A DNA stretch of 64,000 bases from Paludibacter sp. (GCA_037134195.1 JBAXMR010000008.1:1141-65140), one strand, 5' to 3'; counted from the first letter of the stretch, positions 17,902 to 62,938 are shown. A program made the numbers and translations. The notes: generated by a model from the sequence alone, not told the origin.

Positions 17902-17921
17902 ATGTTGCTTTATTCTGTCAA

Positions 17922-19838: not shown

Positions 19839-19989
19839 TTACTGGATTATATGATACTCCCTTTTCTTAGGACAGTTTTAGCAGCAAGTTAAGATATTTA
19901 TTTTTGCTGCAAGTTTGGTTTTGCTCGGACAAAACGGGAAATAACTTTTTTGGCCGCCCCTGCGAGCCATGAAAAAAGTTATTCTCGTT

Positions 19990-21104: not shown

Positions 21105-21379
21105 AAAATTTTTGGTTTAAAGATAATACAATTATATCTTAGCTTTATGTCCAATTTTTGGGGAGTATCATATTATTCCTCAAAAATAACTAAGATATTT
21201 AAACGAACAGTATTTTTAAGATTGATATTCCTTACCAATTAGAACAATAATATTACAATTTGTATCAAAACTATCAGAATCTCTCATAATTAACAATCTT
21301 AGATTTGAAAAACTCAAAATAATCACTACTTTAGTCGCATAATTCAAAAAAATATATATAATAATAAAATGAAACACGC

Positions 21380-24300
21380 ATGAATCGTCAATTAATGCTT
21401 AAAATCAATTTTGTAATTACATTATTATTGTTTCAACAAACCGGTGTTGCAAAAGACTATAAAATCACCCAACTTTCGAGCAATGAGGGTTTATCGCAAC
21501 AAGATGTAGAATGTATTGTTCAGGATAAACAGGGCTTTATCTGGATAGGTACTTATGATGGTTTGAATAGATACGACGGAAACAATATATTGGTATACAG
21601 ACATATACCTAATGACAGCACTACAATAAGTGATAATCGAATTTTATGTATGGAAGAATGGGCTGAAAGGGGGGAATTATGGATTGGAACCGATGGAGGA
21701 TTAAACTGTTTTGATAAAAAGAGTCGAAAATTTAGATGCTATTTTGACACATACAAAAACAAAAACAGTTTTCCCGACAATCAAATCAATTGTTTAGACC
21801 TTGAAAAGAATAATTTATGGATTGGCACTACAGGAGTAAACAAAATAACATTTAATGCTGAAAACATAGAAAAAATTGAATACTATCCTTTAGAATATGC
21901 TGATAACACTACTTTGCAAAGAATAAATGACATCACACATGATATCAATGGAAACATATTAGTTGGAAGTAATGCTGGTTTATTTGTTAAAACCCATAAC
22001 AGTAATAAGTTTGAACCTGTAAAAGAAATTACCGGGTATATCCGACGATTTATCAAAGACAAGTCCGGAAATTTTTGGATTTTATCCTCTAATGGAATTT
22101 TATATTTCACTTTAGATTTACAAAAAAGATATAATTATCTTTCCAATCCAGAATGGATTAATTTTAAAGAAACTGATGTCAAAGACTTAAAGTACATACT
22201 TCCTATTTCAAATCAGCATTTCCTATCGGCCACATCAAATCAACTTTATTGGATATCCAAAATTGGAAATAACTATGTGTTAACAAATACAACCTTTACA
22301 GATAAAAATTTCTTTCGAAATAATGATATTAAAGCATTAATGCTTGACCGATCAAATAATGTTTGGATTACATCAGGAATGGATGGAATAGCCAAATTTG
22401 ATATTGCTGGCAAATCAATCAACTACTTAGCGCTAAACAATTCCATAGAAAATGACAAAATTCATATTCAAACCATTATAAAAGACTATAAAGAAAGAAT
22501 TTGGATTGGCTCAAACAAAGGTGTTTATATAAAAGATTCAAAGAGTGCCAAAAGCTTGAATTTAAAGAATATAGGCATGGGAGTTTTTGATTTATTGGAG
22601 GATAAAACACACGGTGTTTGGATAACCTCATTAAACGCAATCTCTTACCTACCAAACGGAGACGCCAACAAAATAGTTACTATAACAAAATTACCAAATT
22701 TTCCAAAAGAAGCCATAAACATTGATGGCCCAAATTCATCCTGTGTCGACTCACGGAATATAGTTTGGATAGGATTAAAAAAGGGGCTAATTCAAATTAG
22801 GAGAATAGCACAAAAAAACAATTCATTTGACATAAAGTTATTCAAGATATCACAAACAAATAATAATATCACCAAATTAGTATATGACAATAAAAATAAT
22901 ATTTTATTGATTGGGACAAAAAAACTCGGTTTGTTAAAGGCAACACTTAATAAGAATGGAGATATTGAAAGTATTAGCTCTATTAGCAAACTAAAACCTG
23001 GTAAACCTGAACATGTTTGGTCAATTTTTAAGGCTTATGATGATACATTTTACATTGGCACTGATTCCGGAATAAGAAAACTTATATCGACAAATGGAAA
23101 TCAATCGCTTGAGATAATCAGTTCGGACTATCGATTACAAACCTACAAAATTGCAGGAATTACGGGAGACGACAATAAAAATCTTTGGTTATCAACCAGT
23201 ATGGGATTACTTTGCTACAATTTAAATGACAGTACTGTAAAACAGTATTATAATACTGACGGATTATCAACAAATACGCTTACTGAAGGTTCACTTTATA
23301 ATGGTAATGGATTTTTATATATTGGAAGTATAAAGGGTGTTAATATTATAGATTTATCCACATTAAAGGCAAATAAAGCCGAACCGCAAACCGAACTAAT
23401 ATCGCTAAAAATCAATAACTTATTGACAAATCCTCTGGAAGAGATTAATGGTAGAGTTCTTCTGGATAAATCATTAGAAACAACTGATAAAATTAAATTA
23501 AAATACTTTGAAAATAATTTCACTTTCGAATTTGCCTCATTACATTTTAGCAATCCGGCAAAAAATAAGTATTCTTACCGATTGGTTGGTTTTAGCAACG
23601 ATTGGACAGAGGTGAATAACAGTATTCGTTCGGCCACTTTCACCAATGTGCCACCAGGCAAATATACACTGGAGGTTAAAAGTTCAAATTGCGATGGCGT
23701 TTGGAATGAAACTCCCAAAACTATGATTATTCAAATTAATCCTGCTCCATGGAATACCTTCTGGGCTTACCTTATCTATTTTATAATTGCTGTCTCAATA
23801 ATATATTTTATTTTAAAATATTATTTCGACCGTCAGAAACTAAAAAAAGAATTGCTAGAAGAACATTTTCAACACTCAAAAGACCTGGAAATTGCCGAAG
23901 TAAAACTTAAATATCATACCAATATAACGCATGAACTTCGCACTCCACTTTCACTCATTTCGGCTCCAACCGAAGAGCTTATTGCTAAATCATACAACGA
24001 TGATTTTTTAAATTCTCGACTTCAAATTATAAAAAGTAATGCTGACAGGCTTTTGCAACTAATAGGTCAGTTTCTCGATTTCCGAAAAGTAATCAATGAA
24101 AAATACACACTTTCTATTGCCAACAATAATCTGAATGAGTTGCTGTTGAACATCAAAGATAATTTTTCTCCTTCTGCCAAACTAAAACACATCAGCCTTG
24201 AACTATTTTATGATTTGAGCGAAAAGAACTATTGGTTTGATAAAGAAATGGTGAATAAAATATGTTATAATTTGCTTTCAAACGCGATTAAACATACACC

Positions 24301-25402
24301 AACCAAAGGAAAAATCTCCATTTATGCCTCTCAAAGTTCAGATGAAACGCGTGCTTTAATTTCTGTCGAAGATAATGGAGTTGGAATAGCTGAAAATGAA
24401 ATCGGCAAAATTTTTGAGCGGTTTTATCAGGTTCCAGGTTCGGTAGGTGGAACCGGCATTGGTTTAAATTTGTGCAAACACCTTGCTAATCTTCATTTGG
24501 GAGATATTACCGTAAAAAGCAGAGTTGGCGGAGGCACCATTTTTACATTGGAAATACCAATTGCAAAAGAAGCGTATAATGCTGACGTTATTTCTGAAAA
24601 ACATGTAGATACTGAAATCGAAAAACCAGAATTTATTCAGGAAATTGATGAAGAAATTGACACTAAACCGGTTATCCTCGTAATCGAAGATAATTTTGAA
24701 TTGAGAGATTACATTTTTAATTTTCTTTCAGACCATTACAATGTATTAGTGGCTGAAAACGGTGCAGAAGGATTGAAAATGGCCATAGAACACATACCAG
24801 ATATAATTATAAGCGACATCATGATGCCAGTAATGGATGGAATTGAGTTTACAGAAAATTGCAAGAACAATGTTAATACAAGTCATATTCCGGTGATTTT
24901 ACTTACCGCAAAAGCAAGTGAGGAAAGTCAGATTGAGGGACTTTCTTATGGTGCCGATGATTATATTACAAAACCATTTAATCCACAGATACTGAAACTA
25001 AAGGTCAATAATTTAATTAAACTTACCAAAAAAAGAAAGAAAGAAGTAAGTCAAAATATTGATAAACTGAACGAAAGAGAACAGAAGTTCATCAGTACTT
25101 TTGAACAAATTGTATTAGATAACTACTCAACACCTGATTTTGGCATTGACAAAATTTGCAATATGATGTTTATGTCGCGCATGCAATTATATCGTAAGAT
25201 GATGGCTATTGTCAACAAAAAACCATTGCAACTCATCAAAGAAATTAAGATGAAAAAGGCATTGGAATTGATGAAAGAAAAAGGCATGAATATAACCGAG
25301 ACAATGTATGAATTGGAATACACCAATTACACACATTTCACAAAGCAATTTACCGAAGTAAATGGAATTTCACCTCGAAAGGTGCTGGGAATGAAAGAGT
25401 GA
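21380..25402 (+). CDS. Hybrid two-component system sensor/regulator (HTCS)
   Basis: 1340 aa. The periplasmic part carries beta-propeller repeats (WIGT.. motifs) and a Y_Y_Y-type region, followed by a TM segment. Then come HisKA (HELRTPLSLI), HATPase (GTGIGLNL), a receiver (DIIISDIMMPVMDG) and a C-terminal AraC-type HTH. Confidence 0.9.
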   Translation: MNRQLMLKINFVITLLLFQQTGVAKDYKITQLSSNEGLSQQDVECIVQDKQGFIWIGTYDGLNRYDGNNILVYRHIPNDSTTISDNRILCMEEWAERGELWIGTDGGLNCFDKKSRKFRCYFDTYKNKNSFPDNQINCLDLEKNNLWIGTTGVNKITFNAENIEKIEYYPLEYADNTTLQRINDITHDINGNILVGSNAGLFVKTHNSNKFEPVKEITGYIRRFIKDKSGNFWILSSNGILYFTLDLQKRYNYLSNPEWINFKETDVKDLKYILPISNQHFLSATSNQLYWISKIGNNYVLTNTTFTDKNFFRNNDIKALMLDRSNNVWITSGMDGIAKFDIAGKSINYLALNNSIENDKIHIQTIIKDYKERIWIGSNKGVYIKDSKSAKSLNLKNIGMGVFDLLEDKTHGVWITSLNAISYLPNGDANKIVTITKLPNFPKEAINIDGPNSSCVDSRNIVWIGLKKGLIQIRRIAQKNNSFDIKLFKISQTNNNITKLVYDNKNNILLIGTKKLGLLKATLNKNGDIESISSISKLKPGKPEHVWSIFKAYDDTFYIGTDSGIRKLISTNGNQSLEIISSDYRLQTYKIAGITGDDNKNLWLSTSMGLLCYNLNDSTVKQYYNTDGLSTNTLTEGSLYNGNGFLYIGSIKGVNIIDLSTLKANKAEPQTELISLKINNLLTNPLEEINGRVLLDKSLETTDKIKLKYFENNFTFEFASLHFSNPAKNKYSYRLVGFSNDWTEVNNSIRSATFTNVPPGKYTLEVKSSNCDGVWNETPKTMIIQINPAPWNTFWAYLIYFIIAVSIIYFILKYYFDRQKLKKELLEEHFQHSKDLEIAEVKLKYHTNITHELRTPLSLISAPTEELIAKSYNDDFLNSRLQIIKSNADRLLQLIGQFLDFRKVINEKYTLSIANNNLNELLLNIKDNFSPSAKLKHISLELFYDLSEKNYWFDKEMVNKICYNLLSNAIKHTPTKGKISIYASQSSDETRALISVEDNGVGIAENEIGKIFERFYQVPGSVGGTGIGLNLCKHLANLHLGDITVKSRVGGGTIFTLEIPIAKEAYNADVISEKHVDTEIEKPEFIQEIDEEIDTKPVILVIEDNFELRDYIFNFLSDHYNVLVAENGAEGLKMAIEHIPDIIISDIMMPVMDGIEFTENCKNNVNTSHIPVILLTAKASEESQIEGLSYGADDYITKPFNPQILKLKVNNLIKLTKKRKKEVSQNIDKLNEREQKFISTFEQIVLDNYSTPDFGIDKICNMMFMSRMQLYRKMMAIVNKKPLQLIKEIKMKKALELMKEKGMNITETMYELEYTNYTHFTKQFTEVNGISPRKVLGMKE

Positions 25403-32012: not shown

Positions 32013-33692
32013 TTAAAAATCTGACTTTATATTCTCACAATTAATCACCATCGCATTCGTTGAGTTTTGAACGTTCTGGATGGATATAGCAGGTTTTGTG
32101 ATTTTATTTCCGGTGATATTTCCATTTTTTGTTGACGCCACATAAATTACAGGAGAGAAACAATTTGTGAATTCGTTGTTTGTAATATTGATATTGTTGT
32201 GTAATCCTGCCGGAGCCGTTTCACCGTCGAAACCTTCACCGGTAATTTGAATTGCTTTATCCTGTTTATTATCAAGAATAATGTTATTACTTACTTCAAT
32301 ATTATCAGAACAGCCCGATTCGAGCCACCATGCTTCAGGCGAAATTAACACTGATGTCATCCAGTTGCCCTGAAGCGTATTTCCAATTACACTGCCGTTA
32401 CTTGCTTTTATAAGTATTCCTCTTGAACGATTGTACGAAAAATTGCAATTTTTCACCAGAAATCCATTGCCCATTTTATTTACATCAGCAATTACAGTTC
32501 CAAAACCAAATGTAAGTTCTTTATCTACAATGAGTTTTAAAATTTTATTTTGAGGGTTGGACAATCTGCGTTTGTTGTTCTCATTTTGCTTTAAATTAAG
32601 AACGGCTTCAATTTCTTTGTTCGATATAAGTCCGTCATCCTCAATTTTCAATATTTTTGCAACAGGCATTCTTTTTCCATCCATAGTGAGTATTTCGAGT
32701 GAAGTACCTATTGATAAGTCACAAGTTTGAGGAACAATCAACCGAATCACATTTCCAACAGCGCCAGTAGAGAGATAGTATTTACCACAAATGTTGACAC
32801 CATCATCGCCCTGAAATCTGGCCGAGCATTCAATTATTTGGGGTCCAATTGTTGCAAATTTGCTGTGAAACGCGTCTGCATCATTGGAACGTATTCGTTT
32901 ACTACGAACATACATATCTGTTTCAGGTGGACGACGGTCAATAACGCATTTCAGATAGGTGTTTTTTGTTCCATTCGTTTCAAAAAAACCAAAGCAATTG
33001 CCCGAATAAAGGGTAATATTCTCTAACCAGAGATTCACACATTCGTCACTAAAAACAGCATGGAGTTTATTCCCATGTGGTGTAAAGTCGTTATTTGTTA
33101 CTAAAATATCGCCCACTTCCTCTGTATCAATTGTGGGTTTAAACTTATATTTATTGCCTTTGGTAACCCGATAGCTTCTTTCGGCAATCTTTTCAAATTT
33201 AGTCCAACCATAATGGCTCGACCGTTTCAACAGATTTGTTTTTGCATCAAAAATTTCGATACGTTCCACTAAATTGTCGGGGTAATTATCGTCTAATTTA
33301 AATTCAATAATCGATTTATCAGCAGATAGTTTGGTAATTTTGCCCTGAGAGAAACACAAGGGGTCGTAATCAATCACAAGACCTCTTATAGTTACGTTTG
33401 TGCATTTTTCAAACGTTATAGCCCGTGTAGTTTCCGTACAAATCATTTCCACGTTGTTCGCGACTATGGTAATGTCTTTGAGATTTTTAAAACTTAAATG
33501 TTCACTATTCTGTGGCTTTACACGATAAGTGCCTTCAGGAACAATAATTGTTTTTTTACCCGAAGAAATTTCTTTGTCAATGAAGCCCTGTAAATCAAAG
33601 TCTCTTCCTTTATTCGGCATTCCGGATAAAGAGAATGAACTAAAGGTCAGAATAACTACCAAATAGATATGTATTATTGACTTGTTTTTCAT
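32013..33692 (-). CDS. GH110-like beta-helix enzyme, PUL-internal copy without T9SS CTD
   Basis: 559 aa with a signal peptide. Motifs are IDYDPLCFSQG, DADAFHSK-x17-GDDGVNICG, YNRSRGILIKASNG and SPEAWWLESGCSDNIEVSNN. It ends without a sorting domain. Confidence 0.75.
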   Translation of the reverse strand: MKNKSIIHIYLVVILTFSSFSLSGMPNKGRDFDLQGFIDKEISSGKKTIIVPEGTYRVKPQNSEHLSFKNLKDITIVANNVEMICTETTRAITFEKCTNVTIRGLVIDYDPLCFSQGKITKLSADKSIIEFKLDDNYPDNLVERIEIFDAKTNLLKRSSHYGWTKFEKIAERSYRVTKGNKYKFKPTIDTEEVGDILVTNNDFTPHGNKLHAVFSDECVNLWLENITLYSGNCFGFFETNGTKNTYLKCVIDRRPPETDMYVRSKRIRSNDADAFHSKFATIGPQIIECSARFQGDDGVNICGKYYLSTGAVGNVIRLIVPQTCDLSIGTSLEILTMDGKRMPVAKILKIEDDGLISNKEIEAVLNLKQNENNKRRLSNPQNKILKLIVDKELTFGFGTVIADVNKMGNGFLVKNCNFSYNRSRGILIKASNGSVIGNTLQGNWMTSVLISPEAWWLESGCSDNIEVSNNIILDNKQDKAIQITGEGFDGETAPAGLHNNINITNNEFTNCFSPVIYVASTKNGNITGNKITKPAISIQNVQNSTNAMVINCENIKSDF

Positions 33693-42915: not shown

Positions 42916-45900
42916 TTAAAATTTCACATTTAAGCCCAAATTCAACGTTCTGACAATTGGATATGGTTCGTAATTCGCATCATTGTAAGTTGGGATTTCG
43001 GGATCTTCTCCGGGAAATAAATTGTCGAATGTCAATAGGTTAGTGCCATTTACAAAAATACGCGCTGAGCTAATTCCTATCGCTTTGATTAGTTTACCTT
43101 CGAAACTATATCCTACTTCAAGATTTTTCAAACGAAGATAGCTTGCATCTCTTATCCATAATGTGGAAGCCTGATAATTACTGGTTTGATTAGCATCAGA
43201 AGACAAATGAGGAAAAGAAATTGGCAATCCCTGTTCATATCGTTCCTGAGTCCAACTCCAATCTTTTAAATAATCAATGGCAGAACCTTCTTCCTGAAAC
43301 CCACGATTGAATTTTTTAGAGGCCTGTAATGAAACATTACTACTACCCTGAAATAATACCGAAAAATCAAAACCCCTATAATCTGCACCAAATGAAAATC
43401 CATACGAAACTTCGGGGAAATCGGAATAACCAATCGGAACCATGTCTTTCGAATCAATTACAGCATCACCGTTTACGTCCTTATATTTTACATCGCCGGG
43501 TTGAATTTTATTGTTCTGATAGGAGTAAACGGGTCTGTTTACATCATTTACTTCTTCCCATGTATTATAAAAACCTTCATCAATAAAACCAAAATATTGA
43601 TTCAGTCGTTGGCCTGTACGTTGAATATACGGATAGGCAGGAGTAACTTCGTCTTTGAAAATGATTTTATTACGTGCAAAAGTATAAATTGCTTTGAACC
43701 AATAATTTAGTTTTCCTACTTTATCCCTAAAATTAAATTCTCCATCAAATCCACCATTTTCCATTTCGCCGAGATTATAGGCAGGTAAATTCGCACCAAC
43801 AATTACCGGAAGCGTTAATTTATTTGCCAAGATATTTCTCCTGTGTTCTTTAAAAATATCGGCAGTTATTTTAATTTTGTCTTTCCACAAAGAAACATCA
43901 AAACCTATGTTCATCTTAACTGAACGCTCCCATGTTAATTCAGGATTACCCATTTTGCCTTCGGTTGAAGTTGTGTTTAATGTATAATTACTTCCAACAG
44001 TTCCATACCAATAAGCAACATTATCATTGTTGTTACCCGAAGCAGTATTGTAAACAAAAGCAGTAGGGCGATATAGAAATCGTTCTCCACCAATTTTGTC
44101 GTTACCCACTTCACCATAAGACCCTCTGATTTTAAGGAATGAAATCGCATCGTTTTTTGGAAAAAACTCCTCTTCGGAAGCAACCCATCCGGCAGAAAAA
44201 GCAGGAAAAAGACCAAAACGTTTACCTGAAACGAAATTTTCAGTACCATTATAACCAATATTCACTTCGGCTAGATACTTGCTTTTAAAGTCATAAGTAG
44301 CCCTACCTACAATTCCCTGATATGAATTTGGGATAAGAAAAGCTAATCCGGGATCGTAATAGCGACTTTGATTATAAAGTAATAATCCACCCACATTATG
44401 ACTACCCAGTTTTCTTGAATAGTCAAAACCGGCTTCTAAATACTCCTTTCTGTTTTTTCCGAAAGATTCTGATACACTATAAGGCCCATCAGTGCCCTGA
44501 GGAATGTAAACAGCTGATGTTCCATCCACTCCTTTAATAGCACTATAGGTAATCATATCTTTCACATATTTTTGATCCACTAGATTGTAGTTTTGATATG
44601 ACATTACCGCATGTGCCGATAGTCCTTTTGTGATTGCGTCAAGCTTCAAGTTAAAACGCAATGAACCGTTTAATTGATTCGTATATTCTCTTAGTTGACC
44701 ATTTCCAACAACCAATAAATACAATGGGTTTCTGATAAAATTATATTGACCCGAAAGGTTCTCAATCAATTTTCCATCAACAATACCTGGACCCGAAATA
44801 GGAGGATGGGCAAATGCGTTTGATAAAATATAGGCACTGCTATTGGACGGACCATTTCGGTTTTCTAATTGATCGGATAGATTCAAAGAGATTGAAAAAG
44901 CTTTGGATATTTGAAAGTCAAAATTAGATCTGAAATTATATCTGTTATATTTTACCTGAGTATCGTATCCATTGATTAAAGATGTATTGTTATACATACC
45001 TTCTTGCGAAAAGTAACCTACCGAAACGAAATATTTTACTTTTTCGGTGCCACCATTGATGTTCAGATTATGTTGTGTTTGAGTTGAATAATCTTTAAAT
45101 ATTAAGTCTATCCAATTTGTGTTCGGATAAAAAATAGGGTCAGAACCAGTTCGATACTTTTCAATCTCAGCATCTGTAAATTTTGGAGTATAGTTACCTG
45201 TTAAATAACCATCATATTTGCGGGTTTCATTGAAAGATCTGGCATAATCATAGCTATTCATCTGTTTTCTAAGATTTGTAAATCCTGCAACTGCAAAGTT
45301 TGACGAGTAACTTAACTGAGGTTTTGAAATACCACCACGTTTGGTCGTAATCAATATTACGCCATTTGCACCGCGTACACCATAAACAGCTGTTGCCGAT
45401 GCATCTTTTAATATGGAAACATTTTCAATCTCATTAGGGTCAATAGCATTATAATTGGCTGTTTCAATTCCATCAACCATAACTAATGGACTTTGCAGGT
45501 CAACATTTGCATCTGTTGCAAATGAGCCAATACCACGAATACGAATTGTAGATTGATCTTTGCCAGGTTCGCCGCTTTTTTGAACAGCAGTTAAACCTGA
45601 CAATCGACCAACCAACGCATTGCTGATATTTGCCTGTGAAGATTGAACCAATTGTTTTGTTCCTACTGATGATACAGCACCAGTAACAGTAGCTTTATTT
45701 TGCTTCCCATAACCGACCACCACAACTTCAGTCATATTAAAAGACTCATCTTCCAAAACAACTTTCAAATTTGTTGTTTTTTCAATCGAAACACTTTGCT
45801 GAACCATTCCTATGAATGAAAAAATAAGATTTCGAACAGTTTTAGGAACATTTAATATGAATCGTCCATCTGATCCAGTTACAGTGCCAATACCTGCTAT

Positions 45901-46128
45901 ATTTTCAGATTTAACTGTAACTCCTGGCATAGGATTTCCTGAAGCATCTTTTACAATGCCATTAACTTGCTTTTTTTCTGTAAGATTTTGATTGTTGTTA
46001 ATCTTAGTTTGAGCATGAAGTGATTCTACCGACGAAAACAGTATAACACTAAAGAAAAGGAAAACACACAAAATAGTCTTATACCTATTTGTTGCTAAAA
46101 ACCAACGAACTGTTTTATCAGTCTGCAT
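42916..46128 (-). CDS. susC: SusC/RagA TonB-dependent transporter, full length (pair 1)
   Basis: 1070 aa. It has a CarboxypepD_reg-like segment (VNGIVKDASGNPMPGVTVK), EVVVVGYGKQ, a plug and a barrel. It ends ..LGLNVKF. Confidence 0.9.
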   Translation of the reverse strand: MQTDKTVRWFLATNRYKTILCVFLFFSVILFSSVESLHAQTKINNNQNLTEKKQVNGIVKDASGNPMPGVTVKSENIAGIGTVTGSDGRFILNVPKTVRNLIFSFIGMVQQSVSIEKTTNLKVVLEDESFNMTEVVVVGYGKQNKATVTGAVSSVGTKQLVQSSQANISNALVGRLSGLTAVQKSGEPGKDQSTIRIRGIGSFATDANVDLQSPLVMVDGIETANYNAIDPNEIENVSILKDASATAVYGVRGANGVILITTKRGGISKPQLSYSSNFAVAGFTNLRKQMNSYDYARSFNETRKYDGYLTGNYTPKFTDAEIEKYRTGSDPIFYPNTNWIDLIFKDYSTQTQHNLNINGGTEKVKYFVSVGYFSQEGMYNNTSLINGYDTQVKYNRYNFRSNFDFQISKAFSISLNLSDQLENRNGPSNSSAYILSNAFAHPPISGPGIVDGKLIENLSGQYNFIRNPLYLLVVGNGQLREYTNQLNGSLRFNLKLDAITKGLSAHAVMSYQNYNLVDQKYVKDMITYSAIKGVDGTSAVYIPQGTDGPYSVSESFGKNRKEYLEAGFDYSRKLGSHNVGGLLLYNQSRYYDPGLAFLIPNSYQGIVGRATYDFKSKYLAEVNIGYNGTENFVSGKRFGLFPAFSAGWVASEEEFFPKNDAISFLKIRGSYGEVGNDKIGGERFLYRPTAFVYNTASGNNNDNVAYWYGTVGSNYTLNTTSTEGKMGNPELTWERSVKMNIGFDVSLWKDKIKITADIFKEHRRNILANKLTLPVIVGANLPAYNLGEMENGGFDGEFNFRDKVGKLNYWFKAIYTFARNKIIFKDEVTPAYPYIQRTGQRLNQYFGFIDEGFYNTWEEVNDVNRPVYSYQNNKIQPGDVKYKDVNGDAVIDSKDMVPIGYSDFPEVSYGFSFGADYRGFDFSVLFQGSSNVSLQASKKFNRGFQEEGSAIDYLKDWSWTQERYEQGLPISFPHLSSDANQTSNYQASTLWIRDASYLRLKNLEVGYSFEGKLIKAIGISSARIFVNGTNLLTFDNLFPGEDPEIPTYNDANYEPYPIVRTLNLGLNVKF

Positions 46129-46253
46129 AATGTGATTAAATTTAGTTTGTACTAGACTTTTAATTTAAAACAAATATATGAATTTACTGAACATGAAAAT
46201 AATTATTTCTAAACTTATTTTCGGTATCATTTAAACTTATAATTGTTTGACTG

Positions 46254-46299
46254 CAAAATTAGAGCAAACAGCGTGATTCTTACCGTTTGTTTTGTAACA
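46254..46299 (-). promoter_or_regulatory. Putative susC operon promoter with the TGTTACAAA palindrome 28 nt from the -7 box
   Basis: The minus strand reads TGTTACAAAA (46299-46290), N28, TAATTTTG (46261-46254). About 125 nt of leader separates it from the ATG at 46128. Confidence 0.5.
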
Positions 46300-46412
46300 A
46301 AAATCATAAAAATCAAAAGAAAAAACACATTTCTTATTTTTCGAAAATCAACAAACGTGCTAATAATTATTGATGAAATGAATTTTATTACTCTTGCTAA
46401 TTTATTCATTTT

Positions 46413-46478
46413 TGTTACAAAGTATATGTTATCTGTTATATTTGGACATAATTATTAATTTCCCAATTTATAATTTTG
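46413..46478 (+). promoter_or_regulatory. 66-bp promoter module, copy 4 (upstream of the GH110-like gene 46560..48332)
   Basis: TGTTACAAAG (46413-46422), N48, TAATTTTG (46471-46478). TATCTG and TTTG sub-blocks sit at the same offsets as the tandem 9-mers of copies 1-3. Confidence 0.55.
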
Positions 46479-46559: not shown

Positions 46560-48332
46560 ATGTACAAATTTAGGAATCTAATTATTCTAAGCACAATAAT
46601 AACTATTAATAGTGTTATTGCACAAAAACAGATTGATGTCGCTGATTTTGGTGTTAATCAACAAACAGTCGACTGTACGCCTGGAGTAATAAAAAGTTTA
46701 AAAGCCTGCAAGAATGCTGGTGATGCTGTTCTTATATTTAAAAAAGGTGTTTATCATTTCGATTCGGATTATGGCAAAGATAAATATTGTTTTATCAGCA
46801 ACAATGACGAAGGTTTAAAGCGTATTGTCTTTTTGTTAGAAGACATGAACAACCTCACTATTGATGGTCAAGGATCAATTTTTATTTTTCATGGTTTTTT
46901 AAATCCCTTTGTGATTAACAACTCGAGAAATGTCAAATTGAAAAATTTCTCAATCGATTATACTCGTCCATTTCACAGTGAGGCTATAATAACTGCCAAT
47001 AATGCAGATGGAATTGACATTGAAATACCTAAAACTTTTCCATATCGGATTAACAATGGCACGTTAGTTTTTACAGATGGGGGGAAAGAAGAAGGTCAGA
47101 AAACAACTGTCAGCAAAGAAATTATTTACGAATATGGACACCTACTTGAGTTTGATACAAAAAAACGTGAAACTGCCTTTATGGCAAAAGATTACTATTT
47201 GGGTGGCACACCATTAGTTGCATCAAGTTTGGGAGAGAGAAAAGTGCGGCTTTTCATGAAAACCCTAAAGGGAACAATTGGAAATACAATGGTTTTTGCT
47301 TTTGCCAACCGCAACTATCCGGGGTTTTCTGTTTCAGATTCTCGTGACATCCGCTTTGAAAATGTGACTATATATCATGCAGGGGGCATGGGAATAGTAT
47401 GCCAACGTACCCGAAATATCTCCGTTATATCATGTAACGTTAAACCCTCCAATGGTCGTATGATAAGCACTACGGCTGATGCCACTCACTTTACAAACTG
47501 TACAGGGAAAATTGAATTGGGGAATTGTGTTTTCCAAAATCAAATGGACGATGCAACTAATATTCACGGTATCTATGTTCAAATTGCCGAACGTTTAAGT
47601 CCTACTGAATTTATTGTGCAACTAAAACACAAACAACAATTGGGATTTGACTTTCTAAAAGCCGGTACATTAATTGAATTTGTGCAAGGCAAAAGTCTTA
47701 TTACAAAAGGACAGGCTAAAGTGATTGAATCCAAACGATTAAACAAAGATTTCAGGCGTGTAAAGTTATCATCAGAATTGCCCTGCGGCATTGAGATTGG
47801 CGATGCAATAGGTGAAGTGTGTGATTCGCAGTTTGTATATATACATGATAATTATATTGGTCAGAATCGTGCACGAGGAATGTTGCTAAACTGTTATGGA
47901 AAAACAATTGTTGAAAACAATCGATTTCATTCACCGGGAGCTGCTATTCTTTTTGAGGGCGATGCAAGTTTCTGGTTTGAGCAAGGTGGTGTTACAGATT
48001 GTACCATTCAAAATAATATTTTTGATAATTGTCTTTTCGGGGTTTGGGGAAAAGCCATCATTGATGTTGGTGCCGGAATTAAAGAGAATAGAGATTCAAG
48101 TCGGTATAATAAGAATATCAAAGTATTAAACAACACATTCCGAACTTTCGATGAAGGTTTATTGCTTCAGGCATATTGTGTAGATGGTTTGCTGTGGAAA
48201 GGCAATAAAATTGAGAAAACAACTGATTATCCAGCCACTCGGGTTTCAAGTTCTCTTTTCAAGGTTGAAAGCAGCGACAATATTAATATAGACCAAGATA
48301 CTTCGAATAATAAATACGTTTATGTTAAATAA
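46560..48332 (+). CDS. GH110-like alpha-galactosidase-type beta-helix glycosidase
   Basis: 590 aa with a signal peptide. Sequence reads ..IDVADFGV..KKGVYHF..NLTIDGQGSIFIFHGFLNPFVI..NFSIDYTRPFHSEA... The Asp cluster is TADATHF-x17-MDDATNIHG. PbH1-like repeats follow (QNRARGMLLN..). Confidence 0.7.
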   Translation: MYKFRNLIILSTIITINSVIAQKQIDVADFGVNQQTVDCTPGVIKSLKACKNAGDAVLIFKKGVYHFDSDYGKDKYCFISNNDEGLKRIVFLLEDMNNLTIDGQGSIFIFHGFLNPFVINNSRNVKLKNFSIDYTRPFHSEAIITANNADGIDIEIPKTFPYRINNGTLVFTDGGKEEGQKTTVSKEIIYEYGHLLEFDTKKRETAFMAKDYYLGGTPLVASSLGERKVRLFMKTLKGTIGNTMVFAFANRNYPGFSVSDSRDIRFENVTIYHAGGMGIVCQRTRNISVISCNVKPSNGRMISTTADATHFTNCTGKIELGNCVFQNQMDDATNIHGIYVQIAERLSPTEFIVQLKHKQQLGFDFLKAGTLIEFVQGKSLITKGQAKVIESKRLNKDFRRVKLSSELPCGIEIGDAIGEVCDSQFVYIHDNYIGQNRARGMLLNCYGKTIVENNRFHSPGAAILFEGDASFWFEQGGVTDCTIQNNIFDNCLFGVWGKAIIDVGAGIKENRDSSRYNKNIKVLNNTFRTFDEGLLLQAYCVDGLLWKGNKIEKTTDYPATRVSSSLFKVESSDNINIDQDTSNNKYVYVK

Positions 48333-50961
48333 TTCAAAATCAATTCTTTTTGCTTTTTTTCTAATTTCATTCAGTTTACTCTCACATGCTCAATCAACTA
48401 TAATTAAAGAGCAAATCAACTCAAATTGGAAATTTAGCAATTCCAATGAATCAAACTTCGCATTACCCGAATGTGATGAGTCAACATGGATTTCAGTAAA
48501 TATTCCTCACACATGGAACACGACTGATATTACTGATGAAACAAGAGGCTATCGCCGTGGGATTAGTTGGTATCGTAAGCATTTTATGTTGTCAAAAATT
48601 GAATCGGAACAGAAAATTCTTTTGCAATTTGACGCCGTTTCTATCAAAGCTGATGTTTTTGTAAATGGCAAATTAGCAAAAACACATATTGGAGCATATA
48701 CCGCTTTCACTGTCGACATTACAAATTTGATTCAGGTTGGTGATAATGTTATTGCTGTGAAAGCTGATAATAGTGCATCTTTAGCTGACGAAGTTCCTCC
48801 TGTGGCAGGCGATTTTAGTATGACTGGTGGTATTGGCCGCAGTGTTTATTTAGTGAAGATGAATAAAGTTGGCTTTGATGTGGAAACCTATTCTTCTCCC
48901 GGAGTATTTGTTGAAACACCTTCGGTATCTAAAAAGTCGGCAATTGTACGGGTACATGGAAACATTAAAAATGAGACCGCATCAACTCAAAAGCTACTCG
49001 TTTTGCATGAAATTATGGATAATACTGGTTTAGTTGTCAAAAGAATTCAAAAGAATCTGCAATTGAAACCAAACAGTGTTTCGAGCTTTGATGAAATTTT
49101 TCCTGAAGTCAAAAATCCGAAATTATGGTCGCCGGAAACACCCACCTTATATCAAATCCATTCAACTATTAAAGATGCCAAAACAGGCATAGTTTGGCAT
49201 GAAACCAACAATCCACTGGCTTTCCGTTGGTTTAAGGTTGATAATACCGGATTTTACCTAAATGGCAATAAGGTGAAATTGAGAGGTGCAGCGCGTCATC
49301 AGGATTTTGAAGGAACAGGAATGGCTGTTCCAATCGAAATAAATCGAAAAGACATGGTTCAACTGAAAGCGATGGGTGCAAATTTTGTAAGAGTTAGCCA
49401 TTATCCTCAAGATGAAGCAATATATCGAACTTGTGATGAAATTGGGCTGATTGTCTGGAGCGAAATCCCGATTGTAAATGAAGTCAAAAAGAATGAAACA
49501 TTCTATTACAATGCAAAGGAAATGCTCAAGGAAATGATTTACCAGAATTATAATCATCCAAGTATTGTGATGTGGGGCTATATGAACGAACTTTGGGATT
49601 ATCACGATAAAGCAATCGAACTGGCTGACAGTTTAGAAAATATTGCTCGCAAAATAGACAAAAACAGATTGACAACAGTAGCTTTTCATGCTGTTATGAA
49701 AGATAAGCCATACACTCAGACAAATCGTGAAATGTTTGATATTTCAATGATAAATGGGGTGAATGTGTACGAAGGTTGGTATGTTGGAGATTTTAAATCA
49801 ATGGTCGATATCTTTGATAAATTCAGAGCTCTATCACCTAATCGACCAACTTTTTTGTCAGAATTTGGTGCAGGCTCAGATAATAGGATACACACCTATA
49901 AACCACAAATATTTGATTTTAGCCCCGAATATCAAATCGAATTCAATAAGCATTATATAAATGAAATAGAACGCCGAGATTATTATGTTGGTTATTCAAT
50001 CTGGAATTTTATAGATTTCCATGTGGATGGACGGATAGATGTGCAACCCAATTTAAATAATAAAGGCATTGTTACTTCTGACCGTCAGCCTAAAGACATT
50101 TTTTACTATTTTCAAGCGCGTTGGAGCAAGAAACCAATGGTTCATATTGCTTCAAATTGCTGGACTGAACGTACTGAAGTTTGCGATAGTGCGGTATTAA
50201 TTCGACCAATTTCAGTGTTCAGTAACCAGTCCGAAGTAGAACTTTTTCATAATGGAAAATCTTTAGGCAAAAAAGCAGTTGTTGATGGAGAAGTGAGATT
50301 TGAAATCCCGTTTGTAAATGGAAATAACCAATTGGTTGCTGTTGCAGGAAAAGAAATGAATAATGTGGATGTAAATATGAACTTTATTGCTTCTGATTTA
50401 TCCAAAAATCAATTCATCGAGAATGGATTATGTATTAATCTTGGGCAAGATCATAGTTATTTTTTCGATAAAACATTAAATCAGATGTGGATTCCGGATC
50501 AACCTTATAAGCCCAATAGTTGGGGGTATGTGGATGGAGTCAAGTTTGACTCGTGGCCTGAAAACAAAGCCCATAATGGCGTTCGAAACGGTGTGGCTGC
50601 AAATATCAAAAACACTGATTTAGAACCTGTTTTTCAAACATTCCAGTTGGGAATTTCGGAATACAAACTGGATGTTCCCTATGGAAAATATAAAATTGAC
50701 CTTTATTTCGCTGAACCATTTAGCAAAAACGAAATGAAAAATTCAGAAAGAAGTGGTGTTTCAGAAAATGGTGAACGAATATTTGATGTATTGATTAACA
50801 ATCAATTGCTTGTAGAAAAATTAAATTTAGCCAAAGAATATGGATACCAAACAGCTGTAGTAAAATCTTTTGAAATTTCAACACCAGGTGGCATTTCCAT
50901 TAAATTAAATTCAATAGCTGGAAAAACTGTAATAAGCGGAATAAGGATACAAAAGTTATAG
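48322..50961 (+). CDS. GH2 glycosidase with C-terminal malectin-like carbohydrate-binding domain
   Basis: 879 aa. GH2 motifs are NFVRVSHYPQDE, WGYMNE and LSEFGAGS. The C-terminus (..YKLDVPYGKYKIDLYFAEPF..ERIFDVLINNQL..) resembles malectin. It overlaps the upstream gene by 11 nt. Confidence 0.8.
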   Translation: MLNNSKSILFAFFLISFSLLSHAQSTIIKEQINSNWKFSNSNESNFALPECDESTWISVNIPHTWNTTDITDETRGYRRGISWYRKHFMLSKIESEQKILLQFDAVSIKADVFVNGKLAKTHIGAYTAFTVDITNLIQVGDNVIAVKADNSASLADEVPPVAGDFSMTGGIGRSVYLVKMNKVGFDVETYSSPGVFVETPSVSKKSAIVRVHGNIKNETASTQKLLVLHEIMDNTGLVVKRIQKNLQLKPNSVSSFDEIFPEVKNPKLWSPETPTLYQIHSTIKDAKTGIVWHETNNPLAFRWFKVDNTGFYLNGNKVKLRGAARHQDFEGTGMAVPIEINRKDMVQLKAMGANFVRVSHYPQDEAIYRTCDEIGLIVWSEIPIVNEVKKNETFYYNAKEMLKEMIYQNYNHPSIVMWGYMNELWDYHDKAIELADSLENIARKIDKNRLTTVAFHAVMKDKPYTQTNREMFDISMINGVNVYEGWYVGDFKSMVDIFDKFRALSPNRPTFLSEFGAGSDNRIHTYKPQIFDFSPEYQIEFNKHYINEIERRDYYVGYSIWNFIDFHVDGRIDVQPNLNNKGIVTSDRQPKDIFYYFQARWSKKPMVHIASNCWTERTEVCDSAVLIRPISVFSNQSEVELFHNGKSLGKKAVVDGEVRFEIPFVNGNNQLVAVAGKEMNNVDVNMNFIASDLSKNQFIENGLCINLGQDHSYFFDKTLNQMWIPDQPYKPNSWGYVDGVKFDSWPENKAHNGVRNGVAANIKNTDLEPVFQTFQLGISEYKLDVPYGKYKIDLYFAEPFSKNEMKNSERSGVSENGERIFDVLINNQLLVEKLNLAKEYGYQTAVVKSFEISTPGGISIKLNSIAGKTVISGIRIQKL

Positions 50962-53451: not shown

Positions 53452-54669
53452 ATGTTTAAAAATCAAGAAATTACAGAAGGTATTTATTATGTTGGAATAA
53501 ACGATCGTCAGAAACATAAGTTTGAAAATATGATTCCCATACCTGATGGGGTTTCATATAATGCATTTTTAATAGTTGATGAAAAAACTGCACTTGTTGA
53601 CACTGTAGAAGTTCAATTTGGAGATGTCTTTATAAACAAAATACAATCGCAGTTAGCAGATAAAACACTTGATTTTGTAATAATCAACCACATGGAACCC
53701 GATCATTCCGGGTCAATCCGCCTACTTCGTCAGTACTACCCCGATGTAGTTATTGTAGGTAATAGCAAAACACTGAGTATGGTGGAGGGTTTTTATGGTG
53801 TAACTGATAAAACCTTAGAAATTAAGGATGCAGAAGTTCTCTCACTTGGTAAACATCAGCTTCAGTTTTACTTGACACCAATGGTTCATTGGCCGGAAAC
53901 CATGATGACTTACGAAACAACTCAAAAAGTTCTGTTTTCGGGTGATGCATTTGGTGCTTTTGGCACTTTGAACGGCAATGTGATTGATGAAAATATTGAT
54001 ATTGAGCCATTTTGGGATAGCACAGCGTTATATTATTCCAATATTGTAGGAAAGTATGGTAATCCGGTTCAAAAAGCATTATTGAAACTTTCGCCTTTGG
54101 ATATCAAATATATTTGTAGTACTCATGGTCCTGTCTGGAAAAAGTATATTCCGCAGATTATTGATAAATATGACCAATACAGCCTTTATCATGGCGAAGA
54201 TGGTGTGGTAATAGTTTACGGTTCGATGTATGGTAATACGGAGTTGATGGCCGAAATTGTTGCTCAGGGTCTTTCAGAAGCAGGTGTAAATAAAATAATA
54301 ATTCATAATGCTTCTAAATCGGATTCAACCATAATTATTCGTGATATTTTTAAATATAAAGGTTTAATTGTAGGAAGCCCGACTTATTGCAATGAATTAT
54401 ATCCTGATATTGACTCACTACTGCGTAAAATAGAAATTCGAGGTATAAAAAACCGTGTATTTGGAAGTTTCGGGTCATATACTTGGGCAGGTGTAGCCAT
54501 TAAACGATTGACTACTTTTGTTGAAACAATGAAATGGACTGCAGCAGAACTTAATGTTGAAGAAAAACAAGGATTGAAAAAGGATAAATACGAAGAATGT
54601 CTCGAACTTGGTCATCAGGTTGCAGAATTAATGAAAAATCATGTTGACGATCTTCCACATTGTGTATAA
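53452..54669 (+). CDS. FprA-type flavodiiron protein (metallo-beta-lactamase fold plus flavodoxin domain)
   Basis: 405 aa. HMEPDHSG is the di-iron motif. A flavodoxin-like segment follows (VVIVYGSMYGNTE..). Confidence 0.85.
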   Translation: MFKNQEITEGIYYVGINDRQKHKFENMIPIPDGVSYNAFLIVDEKTALVDTVEVQFGDVFINKIQSQLADKTLDFVIINHMEPDHSGSIRLLRQYYPDVVIVGNSKTLSMVEGFYGVTDKTLEIKDAEVLSLGKHQLQFYLTPMVHWPETMMTYETTQKVLFSGDAFGAFGTLNGNVIDENIDIEPFWDSTALYYSNIVGKYGNPVQKALLKLSPLDIKYICSTHGPVWKKYIPQIIDKYDQYSLYHGEDGVVIVYGSMYGNTELMAEIVAQGLSEAGVNKIIIHNASKSDSTIIIRDIFKYKGLIVGSPTYCNELYPDIDSLLRKIEIRGIKNRVFGSFGSYTWAGVAIKRLTTFVETMKWTAAELNVEEKQGLKKDKYEECLELGHQVAELMKNHVDDLPHCV

Positions 54670-58684: not shown

Positions 58685-59455
58685 TTACACCCAACCTTCC
58701 TGAATAGTCTTTGCAATCAGCTCTGCAATAGTTGACGTTTGAGTTTTTACCATGATATTGCGTCGGTGATTCAGCACAGTAAACCTACTCAGGAAAAGAA
58801 TTTCAGCTATTTCTTTGCTGTGTCTGCCATGTAAAATATAATACAAAACCTCTTTTTCTCTGCGGGTCAGAAATTCACTTGTGGGGATAAATTTGCTTGA
58901 AAGATCCACGTTTAGATAAGATGGTCTGCCCTCCAGACCCACAAATGATAGTACCGGATTTCCTTCAGTTTTAATATGACTAATATCGGTATGAATGCCT
59001 AAAGTTTTGTTTATTCCTCCGGTTTCGGTAGTCTGCATAGTTACAACCTGTTGCAATACACGAATATAATCGCCCGTATTTTTCCGAATACGGAAATCGA
59101 AGCGTACTTTATACCTGAAAATATCTTTAGGAGCTATCGCATTAAAGAATTCTACCGACTTTTTTCCAAAACCAATAAAGGCAGGTGCATCTTCCGGGTG
59201 AATAATCTGAAAAAAGAATTCCGCAGTAAACTGTTCAGGTTTGTATCCAAGCACTTGGGTGATACTTGGGCTTACAAATTGTATAAGTCCATTTTGTAAA
59301 TCAAAAATATAATAATAAAATGGTCCCACGCTCACAATATTCAACAACTTCCGATAGGCTTCCAAATCAATATTCATATTGATTTCTTTACCCGCTTTAA
59401 TGGCTGCTTGCCATGCTTTTTGGGCCTGAATTATGGGGAGTAAAGTGTTTGGCAT
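58685..59455 (-). CDS. PAS-domain LuxR-family transcriptional regulator (paralog 1)
   Basis: 256 aa with a central PAS-like region. The C-terminal HTH reads LTRREKEVLYYILHGRHSKEIAEILFLSRFTVLNHRRNI. Confidence 0.8.
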   Translation of the reverse strand: MPNTLLPIIQAQKAWQAAIKAGKEINMNIDLEAYRKLLNIVSVGPFYYYIFDLQNGLIQFVSPSITQVLGYKPEQFTAEFFFQIIHPEDAPAFIGFGKKSVEFFNAIAPKDIFRYKVRFDFRIRKNTGDYIRVLQQVVTMQTTETGGINKTLGIHTDISHIKTEGNPVLSFVGLEGRPSYLNVDLSSKFIPTSEFLTRREKEVLYYILHGRHSKEIAEILFLSRFTVLNHRRNIMVKTQTSTIAELIAKTIQEGWV

Positions 59456-59602
59456 AATAGTGACAAGTTAGAGATTAGCTTATGACCTCCAACCCCCAAA
59501 TGGGGACTTAAGACGCAGTATTTTTAAAATTAAAACATATTTTAATGCAATTGAAATAAATCAATACGAATCAAAATCCCTTTTTTGGGGTTTGGGGGCA
59601 AA

Positions 59603-60376
59603 TTACACCCACCCTTCTTGAATCGTTTTCACTGTCAAATCAGCTGTAGATTTAGCTCCTGCTTTTGCCAATATATTACGGCGATGGTTGAGTATTGTAT
59701 GTTTGCTCAGACCAAGTATTTCTGCAATTTCGTTGCTATGTTTTCCGTGGATAATATGAAACAATACCTCTTTTTCTCTTTCTGATAAGAGTGATTTAGT
59801 GGGTATAAACACTTTTTCCACTTCAATATTCAGATAGGATGGCTCACCATTAATACCTATAATCGACATGGACGGAGTGCCTTCAGGTTTTATATCGCTA
59901 ATATCGGTATGAATACCCAATGATTTATTAACTCCTCCTGTCTCGGTAGTCTCCAGGGTTACAACTTGTTGTAATACCCGAATATATTCTCCGCTGGTTT
60001 TTCGCACCCGAAAATCGTATTGTACTTTGTAGTTAAAAATATTTTCAACAGTAAGTTTATTGAAAAACTCAGCCACTTTGTTTTCGAAGTTTACATAATA
60101 TTGTACATCCTCCGGATGAATTACCTGTGTAAAGAAGAATTCGGGAGTAAATTCCTCAGGTGTGTAACCCAGAATATCGGTAATACTGTCACTCACAAAG
60201 GGAAGAGTCATATTCTGAATATCAAAAATATAGTAGTAAAAGTTCCCAACGTGAATAATACTCAGCAGTCTTTTGTGAATATCTAGCTCTAATTCCAGTT
60301 TTATTTCTTTACCATCGCGGATAACATCTTCCCAAATATGACGAGCCTGATCGAATGGAAGTACTCTTTTTGCCAT
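59603..60376 (-). CDS. PAS-domain LuxR-family transcriptional regulator (paralog 2)
   Basis: 257 aa, collinear with the neighbour. Both share ..YIRVLQQVVT.ETTETGG.NK.LGIHTDIS.IK.EG.. and end in TIQEGWV. Confidence 0.8.
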   Translation of the reverse strand: MAKRVLPFDQARHIWEDVIRDGKEIKLELELDIHKRLLSIIHVGNFYYYIFDIQNMTLPFVSDSITDILGYTPEEFTPEFFFTQVIHPEDVQYYVNFENKVAEFFNKLTVENIFNYKVQYDFRVRKTSGEYIRVLQQVVTLETTETGGVNKSLGIHTDISDIKPEGTPSMSIIGINGEPSYLNIEVEKVFIPTKSLLSEREKEVLFHIIHGKHSNEIAEILGLSKHTILNHRRNILAKAGAKSTADLTVKTIQEGWV

Positions 60377-62108: not shown

Positions 62109-62134
62109 TCGTTTGATTGTTTAAATTATCAACT

Positions 62135-62938
62135 ATGAACATTGTTTTTGTTTCGGTATTTATACTGGGTTTATTGGGGGCATTGTCAGCATTGGTTTTG
62201 TACTTCACTGCCAAAAAGTTTAATTTTCCAACTAATCCTCTCATTGCCGAAGTTGAAGCCGTATTACCTGCTGTAAATTGTGGCGGATGCGGACAAGCAA
62301 GTTGTCACGGCTTTGCAGTTGCTTGTGTAAAATCAAATTCGTTGCATAACATGGTTTGCACAGTGGGCGGAAAGTCGATTATGGAAGATGTTGCTTCAAT
62401 ACTCGGGAAAACAGCAAATCCGGTAATACCAACTGTAGCAGTGGTACGCTGCGGAGGAAGTTGTGAACTTCGGCCACACATTAATCAGTTTGGTGGTGCT
62501 TCAAGTTGCGCTGTGGTACATAATCTGTATGGTGGCGAAACAGGTTGCTCGTGGGGCTGTATCGGGTTGGGCGATTGCGTTGAACCTTGCAAGTTTGATG
62601 CCATAAAGATAAACCCCGAAACCTTATTACCCGAAATAAGCGACAACAAATGTACTTCGTGCAATGCATGTGTAACAGCTTGTCCGAAAGGAATTATCGA
62701 GCTTCGCAATTTGGGTGAGCCGGCTCATAAAATTTACGTAAATTGTGTAACAAAAGATTCGGGTGTTGCCGAAAGTTGTGCTGTTGCCTGCAATGGTTGC
62801 GAAAAGTGTGTAGAAGTATGTGAGGATAAGGCTATTAATATGATTGGTCAACTGGCTTATATCGACTCAACAGTTTGCACCCTTTGCGGAAAATGTGTTT
62901 CTGTTTGTCCCACAAATGCAATAGTGGAAAAAAAGTAG
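62135..62938 (+). CDS. rnfB: Rnf electron-transport complex subunit B (Fe-S)
   Basis: An N-terminal TM helix is followed by multiple CxxCxxCxxxCP ferredoxin motifs. I place the start at the ATG at 62135; the track uses TTG at 62117. Confidence 0.85.
   Translation: MNIVFVSVFILGLLGALSALVLYFTAKKFNFPTNPLIAEVEAVLPAVNCGGCGQASCHGFAVACVKSNSLHNMVCTVGGKSIMEDVASILGKTANPVIPTVAVVRCGGSCELRPHINQFGGASSCAVVHNLYGGETGCSWGCIGLGDCVEPCKFDAIKINPETLLPEISDNKCTSCNACVTACPKGIIELRNLGEPAHKIYVNCVTKDSGVAESCAVACNGCEKCVEVCEDKAINMIGQLAYIDSTVCTLCGKCVSVCPTNAIVEKK

Follow-up and report, generated by a model that had tools for sequence, protein, structure and literature searches.

A predicted hybrid two-component system half-site at the promoters of a Sus-type polysaccharide utilization locus and a type IX secretion gene island in a Paludibacter-like genome

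A 64,000-nt stretch of DNA from Paludibacter sp. (GCA_037134195.1 JBAXMR010000008.1:1141-65140; hereafter the window) contains a Sus-type polysaccharide utilization locus (PUL) and an island of genes for enzymes with sorting domains of the type IX secretion system (T9SS), and the two share a short promoter element, TGTTACAAA. The element is conserved and regulatory, and chance is excluded by its occurrence statistics; it is probably a half-site of the predicted operator of a hybrid two-component system (HTCS) encoded at 21380-25402, which would unite the island and the PUL in one regulon. HTCSs are the chief regulators of polysaccharide utilisation in Bacteroidota; to our knowledge, however, their mapped operators are very few, and we know of no account of how an HTCS contacts RNA polymerase at promoters of the -7/-33 type. 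The closest named relatives of the proteins encoded in the window were proteins from Paludibacter metagenome-assembled genomes.

Conserved half-sites at the divergent susC and GH110 promoters

The PUL operon extends over ~20 kb of the minus strand, from susC, its first gene (42916-46128), to 25467, and by Pfam annotation encodes two sets of SusC/D, a DUF5013 protein, a sulfatase, a beta-helix protein, and GH88-PL8, GH27, and GH2 proteins. Divergent from it on the plus strand are a GH110-like alpha-galactosidase gene (46560-48332), with GLAA-B beta-barrel domains and Beta_helix, and a following gene with GH2 domains, together spanning 46560-50961. An Rfam scan of the susC/GH110 intergenic region matched no RNA family, and the Pfam annotation of the window placed no regulator gene between 25467 and 50961, the HTCS gene lying outside that stretch.

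On the GH110 side, TGTTACAAAG (46413-46422, plus) is followed after 48 nt by TAATTTTG (46471-46478), and on the susC side, TGTTACAAAA (46299-46290, minus) is followed after 28 nt by TAATTTTG (46261-46254), exactly the coordinates and spacings that a first-pass annotation had reported. Both TAATTTTG boxes match TAnnTTTG and are putative -7 boxes of the GH110-GH2 operon (46471-46478, plus) and the susC operon (46254-46261, minus). TAnnTTTG is cited in PMC7641319 as the -7 consensus of the primary sigma factor of Bacteroidota.

Through GH110 protein homologues, the same divergent pairing of susC and GH110 was located on metagenome contigs, namely L006/L007 (90%), L008/L009 (86%), and L011 (77%), and a metagenome scan contributed the further loci L016-L022 (84-68% GH110 identity). 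A scan of a genome collection with the GH110 protein yielded four loci, two of which had 45% (L002) and 28% (L003) identity, and inspection of the other two (L001 and L004) showed no synteny. Across ten non-redundant GH110 promoters (GH110 identity 90 to 66%), 66 bp could be aligned without indels, and conservation was concentrated in three blocks: positions 1-9 (TGTTAYAAn; mean information 1.54 bits), corresponding to the distal half-site TGTTACAAA at 46413-46421 (plus), the copy that the first-pass annotation had placed at 48 nt; positions 18-33 (TATCTGTTAYATYTGG, nearly invariant; 1.75 bits), corresponding to the proximal half-site TATCTGTTATATTTGG at 46430-46445 (plus); and positions 59-66 (TAAyTTTG; 1.79 bits), the -7 box. 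The spacers and the 5′ flank carried ~0.7 bits. The 66-bp span to the -7 box was fixed in 10/10 orthologues, and the proximal block, second in conservation after that box, was retained down to 66-68% GH110 identity.

The core of the element is present twice in this promoter in the same orientation, as TGTTACA at position 1 and TGTTATA at position 22, that is, with a 21-bp period, and the tandem can be written TGTTAYAAA-N12-TGTTAYATYTGG, the second copy being literally TGTTACAT in several orthologues. The first-pass annotation had seen TATCTG and TTTG blocks at these offsets, where they do lie, but the second half-site went unrecognised. A candidate -7 box, TATATTTG, lies within the proximal half-site at offset 24; it was rejected because TAnnTTTG is not kept in the orthologues with TTACATCTGG, and it is therefore part of the half-site.

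Six orthologous susC promoters keep TTTTTAyGaTTTT-TGTTACAA-aAC.AA.GG, which can also be written TTTTTAyGaTTTT-TGTTACAAAAC.AA.GG; in the window this block occupies 46283-46312 (minus) and contains the copy that had been placed at 28 nt (46299-46291). From the start of the half-site to TAnnTTTG the distance is 38 nt in the orthologues, except 37 in L018, and the box itself is present in 6/6 orthologues, varying at the nn positions only (TAAT, TACT, TAGT, TACA). Between the conserved blocks and in the rest of the intergenic region, the DNA is unalignable or expanded, the region measuring 1063 bp in L008 vs 431 bp in the window. Both PUL sites are thus conserved cis elements at a fixed distance from conserved -7 boxes.

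The GH110 proximal half-site starts 37 nt before its -7 box and the susC copy 38 nt before its own, so that the two occupy the same slot, and the 20-bp offset between the copies first noted (58 vs 38 nt), though real, is therefore one step of the tandem repeat. The first-pass annotation had likened this offset to class I versus class II activator placement, a comparison that fails because the GH110 promoter also has a conserved half-site at 37 nt, in the slot used at susC; the two promoters differ in the number of recognisable half-sites rather than in their placement. In class I and class II placement, each promoter has a single site, at about -61.5 in one class and about -41.5 in the other. 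The window resembles the E. coli CRP promoters of these classes in that the copies lie 20 bp apart, about two helical turns, on the same face of the helix, and in that its promoters are without a canonical upstream hexamer; however, its element is an asymmetric direct repeat and not the palindrome of a symmetric dimer.

Several smaller features accompany these promoters. A second TAnnTTTG box, TATATTTG at 46171-46178 (minus), lies ~45 nt 5′ of the susC start codon; it is retained in four of the six orthologues (the window, L006, L008, and L016) and missing in L011 and L018, and may mark a further susC promoter, closer to the gene. In L008, a ~650-bp insertion (~2940-3640) not present in L016 or the window comes between the conserved promoter block of susC and its start codon; it would either create a leader of 800 nt or displace the promoter. 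L010 and L098 have additional TGTTACA copies, 13-21 nt 5′ of their main distal half-site, and half-site-like TGTTACATTT at 13579-13570 (minus) precedes the half-site of island promoter 2 (see below) by 62 nt; operators with three or more half-sites may occur.

Promoters and genes of the T9SS island

Three further promoters, all on the minus strand, precede island genes with T9SS sorting domains: island promoter 1 (9242-9307), upstream of 5652-9212; island promoter 2 (13452-13517), upstream of 9396-13424 and with an orthologue at 12160-12225 in L096; and island promoter 3 (19773-19838), upstream of 17922-19706 and reading TGTTACAAA-N12-TGGGAATTCTGAGATTAT-N19-TATCTTTG. From TGTTACAAA to TAnnTTTG each spans 66 bp, and the identity of this span with that of the GH110 promoter, claimed earlier for 9307-9242, 13517-13452, and 19838-19773, was borne out. 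Orthologous island promoters (L096, L098, L099, and L101) keep TGTTACAAA-N12-TGrGAnnTTyGrGATTAT-N19-TAnnTTTG over exactly 66 bp. The block TGrGAnnTTyGrGATTAT occupies positions 22-39 of the island promoters (19817-19800, 13496-13479, and 9286-9269, minus), ends 19 nt 5′ of the -7 box, in the -33 slot, and includes the tandem 9-mers of the first-pass annotation, TTTTGAGAT, which are indeed missing from the susC side. Among all the susC, GH110, and island orthologues, TAnnTTTG lies at a fixed spacing, the sole deviation being TAACTTCG in L011.

The island and the PUL encode related enzymes. The island protein 15873-17816, a distant relative of the GH110 alpha-galactosidases, has a paralogue in the PUL protein 32013-33692 (31% identity, E 2e-71).

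The island genes (2510-19706) are mosaic paralogues of one another: 9396-13424 combines an N-terminal half like 13650-15830 with a C-terminal half like 15873-17816, 5652-9212 has its N-terminal half in common with 13650-15830, and 2510-4447 is 86% identical to 15873-17816, whose GH110-like module type is the one paralogous to the PUL gene 32013-33692. The gene 2510-4447 is without the TGTTACAAA promoter found before its paralogues; upstream of it, at 4450-5650, are an element resembling a miniature inverted-repeat transposable element, with nested inverted repeats (5332-5357/5526-5551 and 5373-5393/5500-5520), and frameshifted transposase remnants, and a split DDE transposase lies at 1053-2303.

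Frequency of the element

Exact TGTTACAAA was found seven times in the window vs 1.75 expected and, within its 7.46 kb of intergenic DNA, five times vs 0.23 expected, a count that was reached in 0/2000 composition-matched simulations. All five intergenic copies are oriented toward the gene downstream. The pattern TGTTACAAA-N49-TAnnTTTG, with one mismatch permitted, had four matches in the window vs 0.09 expected. The stricter tandem pattern TGWTACAAA-N12-TGTTNNAWWTGG had exactly two window matches, at the GH110 promoter (46413-46445) and upstream of the HTCS gene (21235-21267), with 0 expected, and among 99 loci its matches were confined to GH110 promoters and HTCS-upstream regions.

Looser descriptions were less informative. 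A position weight matrix (PWM) for a single half-site, trained on other genomes, gave 52 window matches vs 38.6 expected, a weak enrichment; the single half-site PWM alone is too unspecific, and the informative part lies in the top scores and in the tandem or fixed-distance patterns. The loose tandem TGWTAYA-N14-TGWTAYA, with one mismatch, occurred three times vs 0.97 expected, which alone is not significant. A literature search for the 9-mer together with 'Bacteroid' returned unrelated primer matches only.

The two remaining exact copies (3969-3977 and 4323-4331, minus) both fall within coding DNA of the gene 2510-4447. The copy at 4331-4323 encodes N-V-T-K, where the paralogue 15873-17816 has V-P-K, and the DNA motif is not common to both; these coding copies look like coincidences.

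The HTCS gene, its upstream tandem site, and synteny

The HTCS gene (21380-25402, plus) encodes Reg_prop, Y_Y_Y, HisKA, HATPase_c, Response_reg, and HTH_18 domains (Pfam), and lies between the island and the PUL. Upstream of it, and oriented toward the island genes, is the tandem site TGATACAAATTG-N9-TGTTCTAATTGG (21235-21267, minus). In the form TGATACAAAT-N11-TGTTnnAAWTGG, which again has a period of 21 bp, this tandem is situated between HTCS gene and island promoter at a distance of 88-136 nt from the ATG in all four loci measured (the window, L096, L098, and L099), and variants of it are also present in L100 and L101, bringing the number of genomes to six. At least two half-sites in the same orientation and ~21 bp apart centre to centre, as in HTCS operators, are therefore found at both the GH110 promoter and the HTCS-upstream site.

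Homologues of the island gene 17922-19706 were traced to the contigs L096/L097 (89%), L098 (51%), and L099 (53%). HTCS orthologues are divergent neighbours of T9SS island genes in 5/5 other genomes, with full-length identities to the window HTCS of 72% (L096), 59% (L098), 59% (L099), 54% (L100), and 54% (L101). In L101 the order of three T9SS genes, HTCS, and DUF5013/SusD/SusC/SusD/SusC is the same as in the window; in L100 a GH110 gene, one T9SS gene, and the HTCS gene lie inside 9.4 kb, and the GH110 promoter has the full 66-bp architecture; and in L096 the HTCS and island promoter are contiguous. The sites thus lie upstream of operons of the HTCS locus and co-occur with HTCS orthologues across genomes. 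In the window, the adjacency of HTCS and island is interrupted by an IS3-family insertion sequence (IS) element (19846-21176; rve/HTH_21 open reading frames 19990-20778 and ~20800-21106; 16-nt terminal inverted repeats, 94% complementary), inserted 7 nt upstream of the TGTTACAAA half-site of island promoter 3. Within the HTCS orthogroup the DNA-binding domain is 50-88% identical (59-88% for members with at least 47% full-length identity) vs 25-29% for paralogues, and both recognition helices are almost invariant.

On the island side of the HTCS tandem, TATTTTTG lies at 21179-21186 (minus), 58 nt after TGTTCTAAT, the proximal half-site. In L096 a TAnnTTTG at ~5770-5777 likewise follows the proximal half-site at exactly 58 nt, whereas none was seen at this position in L098 or L099. 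The offset, the same as at the other promoters, suggests an extra promoter directed toward the island.

Two adjacent paralogous PAS-LuxR (GerE) regulator genes were also noted at 58685-60376 (minus), near anaerobe-type genes for a flavodiiron protein (53452-54669) and an Fe-S protein (62117-62938); no link between this pair and the motif was found.

Proposed operator and regulon

A dimeric HTCS would bind direct-repeat half-sites with the core TG[T/A]TA[C/T]A, 21 bp apart and on one face of the helix. These half-sites would lie just upstream of sigma-A-type promoters with TAnnTTTG, abutting the place of the normal -33 element. The proximal slot, 37-38 nt before the -7 box, would be filled by the susC copy and by the TATCTGTTATATTTGG block of the GH110 promoter, and the distal slot, 58 nt before the box, by the GH110 copy of the first-pass annotation and by the copies at the three island promoters. 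Detection of its glycan would lead the HTCS to turn on the ~20-kb susC operon, the GH110-GH2 operon, and the genes for the T9SS-secreted enzymes, and the HTCS may regulate itself through the tandem site at 21235-21267. Island and PUL would then form one conserved unit, in which secreted beta-helix (GH110-like) enzymes act outside the cell and the PUL supplies uptake and finishing enzymes. The idea that a single regulator serves both the T9SS island and the PUL, already put forward in the first-pass annotation, is supported by the cis element at fixed spacing, the HTCS synteny, and the paralogy of the enzymes.

A -33 element, TTTG, usually lies ~19-21 nt upstream of the -7 box, and activator-dependent promoters are often without a canonical upstream hexamer. 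On direct reading, TTG or TTTG is missing at 19-21 nt from the -7 box in all five window promoters, the closest upstream TTTG ending 26 nt (GH110 and island) or 3 nt (susC) before the box. This absence is consistent with dependence on an activator, and the TAnnTTTG boxes are predicted to be active -7 elements.

Several points weigh against this proposal. Sequence architecture, conservation, synteny, and paralogy were observed directly; the HTCS, by comparison, is connected with the sites by association, and it is as the associated regulator that we infer it to be the binding protein, and an activator rather than a repressor. The sign of regulation is also a point of doubt in that some HTCSs repress, including BT4124 (PMC13292587) and BT2391. 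At susC, no partner half-site was found by PWM at +/-21 bp on either strand, and the DNA 21 bp upstream of the half-site is AT-rich and degenerate in close relatives, a good CGTTATATTTG ~20 bp upstream being present in L018 only. The island proximal slot is unlike the PUL proximal half-site, with which it has only the skeleton T.TG.....TtTG in common, and a second factor may act at this block. The tandem consensus TGWTACAAA-N12-TGTTNNAWWTGG was written after the sites had been seen. Lastly, L010 and L015 keep the GH110 promoter motif, and no orthologous HTCS is visible in the stretches fetched for them; an AraC fragment beside the GH110 gene in L010 was considered as a remnant of an orthologous HTCS and rejected, being only 28% identical to the window HTCS.

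Alternative explanations

The unlike island block leaves room for a variant of the HTCS proposal, in that TGrGAnnTTyGrGATTAT may represent either a variant half-site or a binding site for a second factor. It is a tentative idea that hybrid operators lie at the island promoters, with a distal TGTTACAAA half-site and an unlike but equally conserved block filling the proximal and -33 slots; the two DNA-binding domains of one HTCS dimer might read unlike half-sites, the HTCS might cooperate with a second factor, or an alternative sigma factor specific for T9SS cargo genes might be involved. If true, this would be a mode of promoter activation so far undescribed for HTCSs and a sequence-level handle on the coupling of T9SS cargo expression to glycan sensing.

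We regard it as unlikely that the sites are bound by an unlinked factor acting as a symmetric dimer on a TGTnACA inverted repeat, either Crp/Fnr-like (of the BT4338/Cur type) or GntR-type, while the HTCS acts elsewhere. The core TGT-T-ACA does have dyad symmetry, which in both PUL copies widens to TTTGTnACAAA, the palindrome of the first-pass annotation; the lone site at susC would suit a dimer on a palindrome, and GT-N-AC fits the loose GntR operator formula. The symmetry does not hold up beyond these copies, however: the island copies keep TGTnACA only, the variants among orthologous sites (TGTTATA, TGATACA, TGTTCCA, and AGTTACA) are asymmetric and never compensatory, and the left arm TTT is not conserved, and therefore dyad symmetry is not under selection. 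The 11-bp palindrome TTTGTnACAAA, with two matches in the window, was equalled in count by 11/100 shuffles. The copies are same-orientation repeats with a 21-bp period, and all occurrences were found near one HTCS orthogroup, with no Crp or GntR gene in these loci.

The predicted Bacteroides Crp-like (BT4338) site is TATGTTnTAnAACATA (PMC3878776), whose core the susC copy, TGTT-ACAA-AACA, resembles. The two are alike in their TGTT and AACA arms and in lying upstream of carbohydrate-utilisation operons; however, the BT4338 site is a true palindrome of 16-22 bp, whereas in the window only the susC copy has TGTT-N4-AACA, the other four sites do not, and the AACA is lost in three of the six susC orthologues (L008, L011, and L018). 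The BT4338 motif was rejected, since what is conserved in the sites does not match it. A GntR/AusR-type operator was also rejected, for only the trivial GT-N-AC core fits, there is no GntR gene, and the sites do not overlap the -7 box.

Another explanation invokes two regulators with overlapping half-site preference, the HTCS controlling the T9SS genes only and an outside HTCS or AraC-type paralogue the PUL, or the reverse. Closely related Bacteroides HTCS paralogues do have similar predicted motifs, the island and PUL proximal blocks differ, and the synteny is uneven, since adjacency of HTCS and island was seen in 5/5 other genomes and that of HTCS and PUL was verified in two (susC/D in L101 and GH110 in L100), with L096 having GH97 on the PUL side of its HTCS. 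Nevertheless, one strict pattern, found nowhere else in the window or the 99 loci, describes both the GH110 tandem and the 33-bp tandem of the HTCS-upstream region, the PUL of the window has no other regulator gene, the island, the HTCS (at 54% identity), and susC/D remain linked in L101, and the enzymes of island and PUL are paralogous, all of which make a division of labour between two regulators improbable.

That the element has no regulatory meaning, arising by chance in AT-rich DNA, from promoter paralogy among the three mosaic island genes, or from a sigma-70-style pair, is hardly credible: although the single half-site PWM is weakly enriched across the window and a sigma-70 scan lists GTTACA-17-TATATT at 46414-46442, chance is excluded by the occurrence and tandem statistics, the spacers have diverged while the blocks stayed fixed in paralogous and orthologous promoters alike, the supposed -10 TATATT is TTACAT in 5/10 orthologues, the scan finds fewer sites than shuffles (3 vs 4.5), and the primary sigma factor of Bacteroidota uses TAnnTTTG (PMC7641319).

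Comparison with known systems and implications

The proposed operator of the HTCS at 21380-25402 agrees in layout with those of Bacteroides. The predicted motifs of 16 B. thetaiotaomicron HTCSs are direct repeats ~21 bp apart (Ravcheev et al. 2013, PMC3878776), and at the BT4124 sites DNase footprinting revealed a half-site spacing of 21-22 bp (Gao et al. 2026, PMC13292587). The window likewise has direct-repeat half-sites ~21 bp apart, preceding susC-like and enzyme operons in the PUL that adjoins the HTCS gene, and in Bacteroides, too, an HTCS regulon can comprise several operons and include genes beyond the core PUL. It differs in that its half-site, TG[T/A]TA[C/T]A..., is unlike the published ones compared with it, such as the BT4124 probe, that its host is a Paludibacter-like member of the Bacteroidales and not Bacteroides, and that the putative regulon would extend to T9SS-secreted enzymes whose promoter is composite, along with a susC promoter that has one clear half-site.

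The Flavobacterium johnsoniae chitin locus with ChiA is a PUL that includes a T9SS-secreted glycoside hydrolase. As in the window, enzymes with C-terminal T9SS sorting domains are encoded there beside SusC/D pairs and a sensor-regulator, and act on one and the same glycan; however, the secreted enzymes of the window are GH110-like beta-helix and fn3 mosaic proteins to which no activity is assigned, and they lie across the regulator gene from the PUL, with an IS element between.

PULs with T9SS-secreted enzymes and HTCS regulons that extend past the core PUL are already known kinds, and nothing known is overturned by the present findings. What the sites fit, at the level of sequence, is an HTCS operator with a new half-site, in a Paludibacter-like genome, with T9SS cargo in its putative regulon. 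The locus gives a sharply defined candidate, backed by a phylogenetic footprint, with a core of TG[T/A]TA[C/T]A, a 21-bp period, and slots at 37-38 and 58 nt, recurring at five promoters in 64 kb, and the regulon proposed from it is directly testable. Its promoters form a natural series with two half-sites, one half-site plus a variant, and one half-site, which could be used to dissect HTCS-dependent activation. If the proposal holds, what was presumed to be a separate T9SS island would belong to the same conserved unit of sensing, uptake, and degradation as the Sus-type genes.

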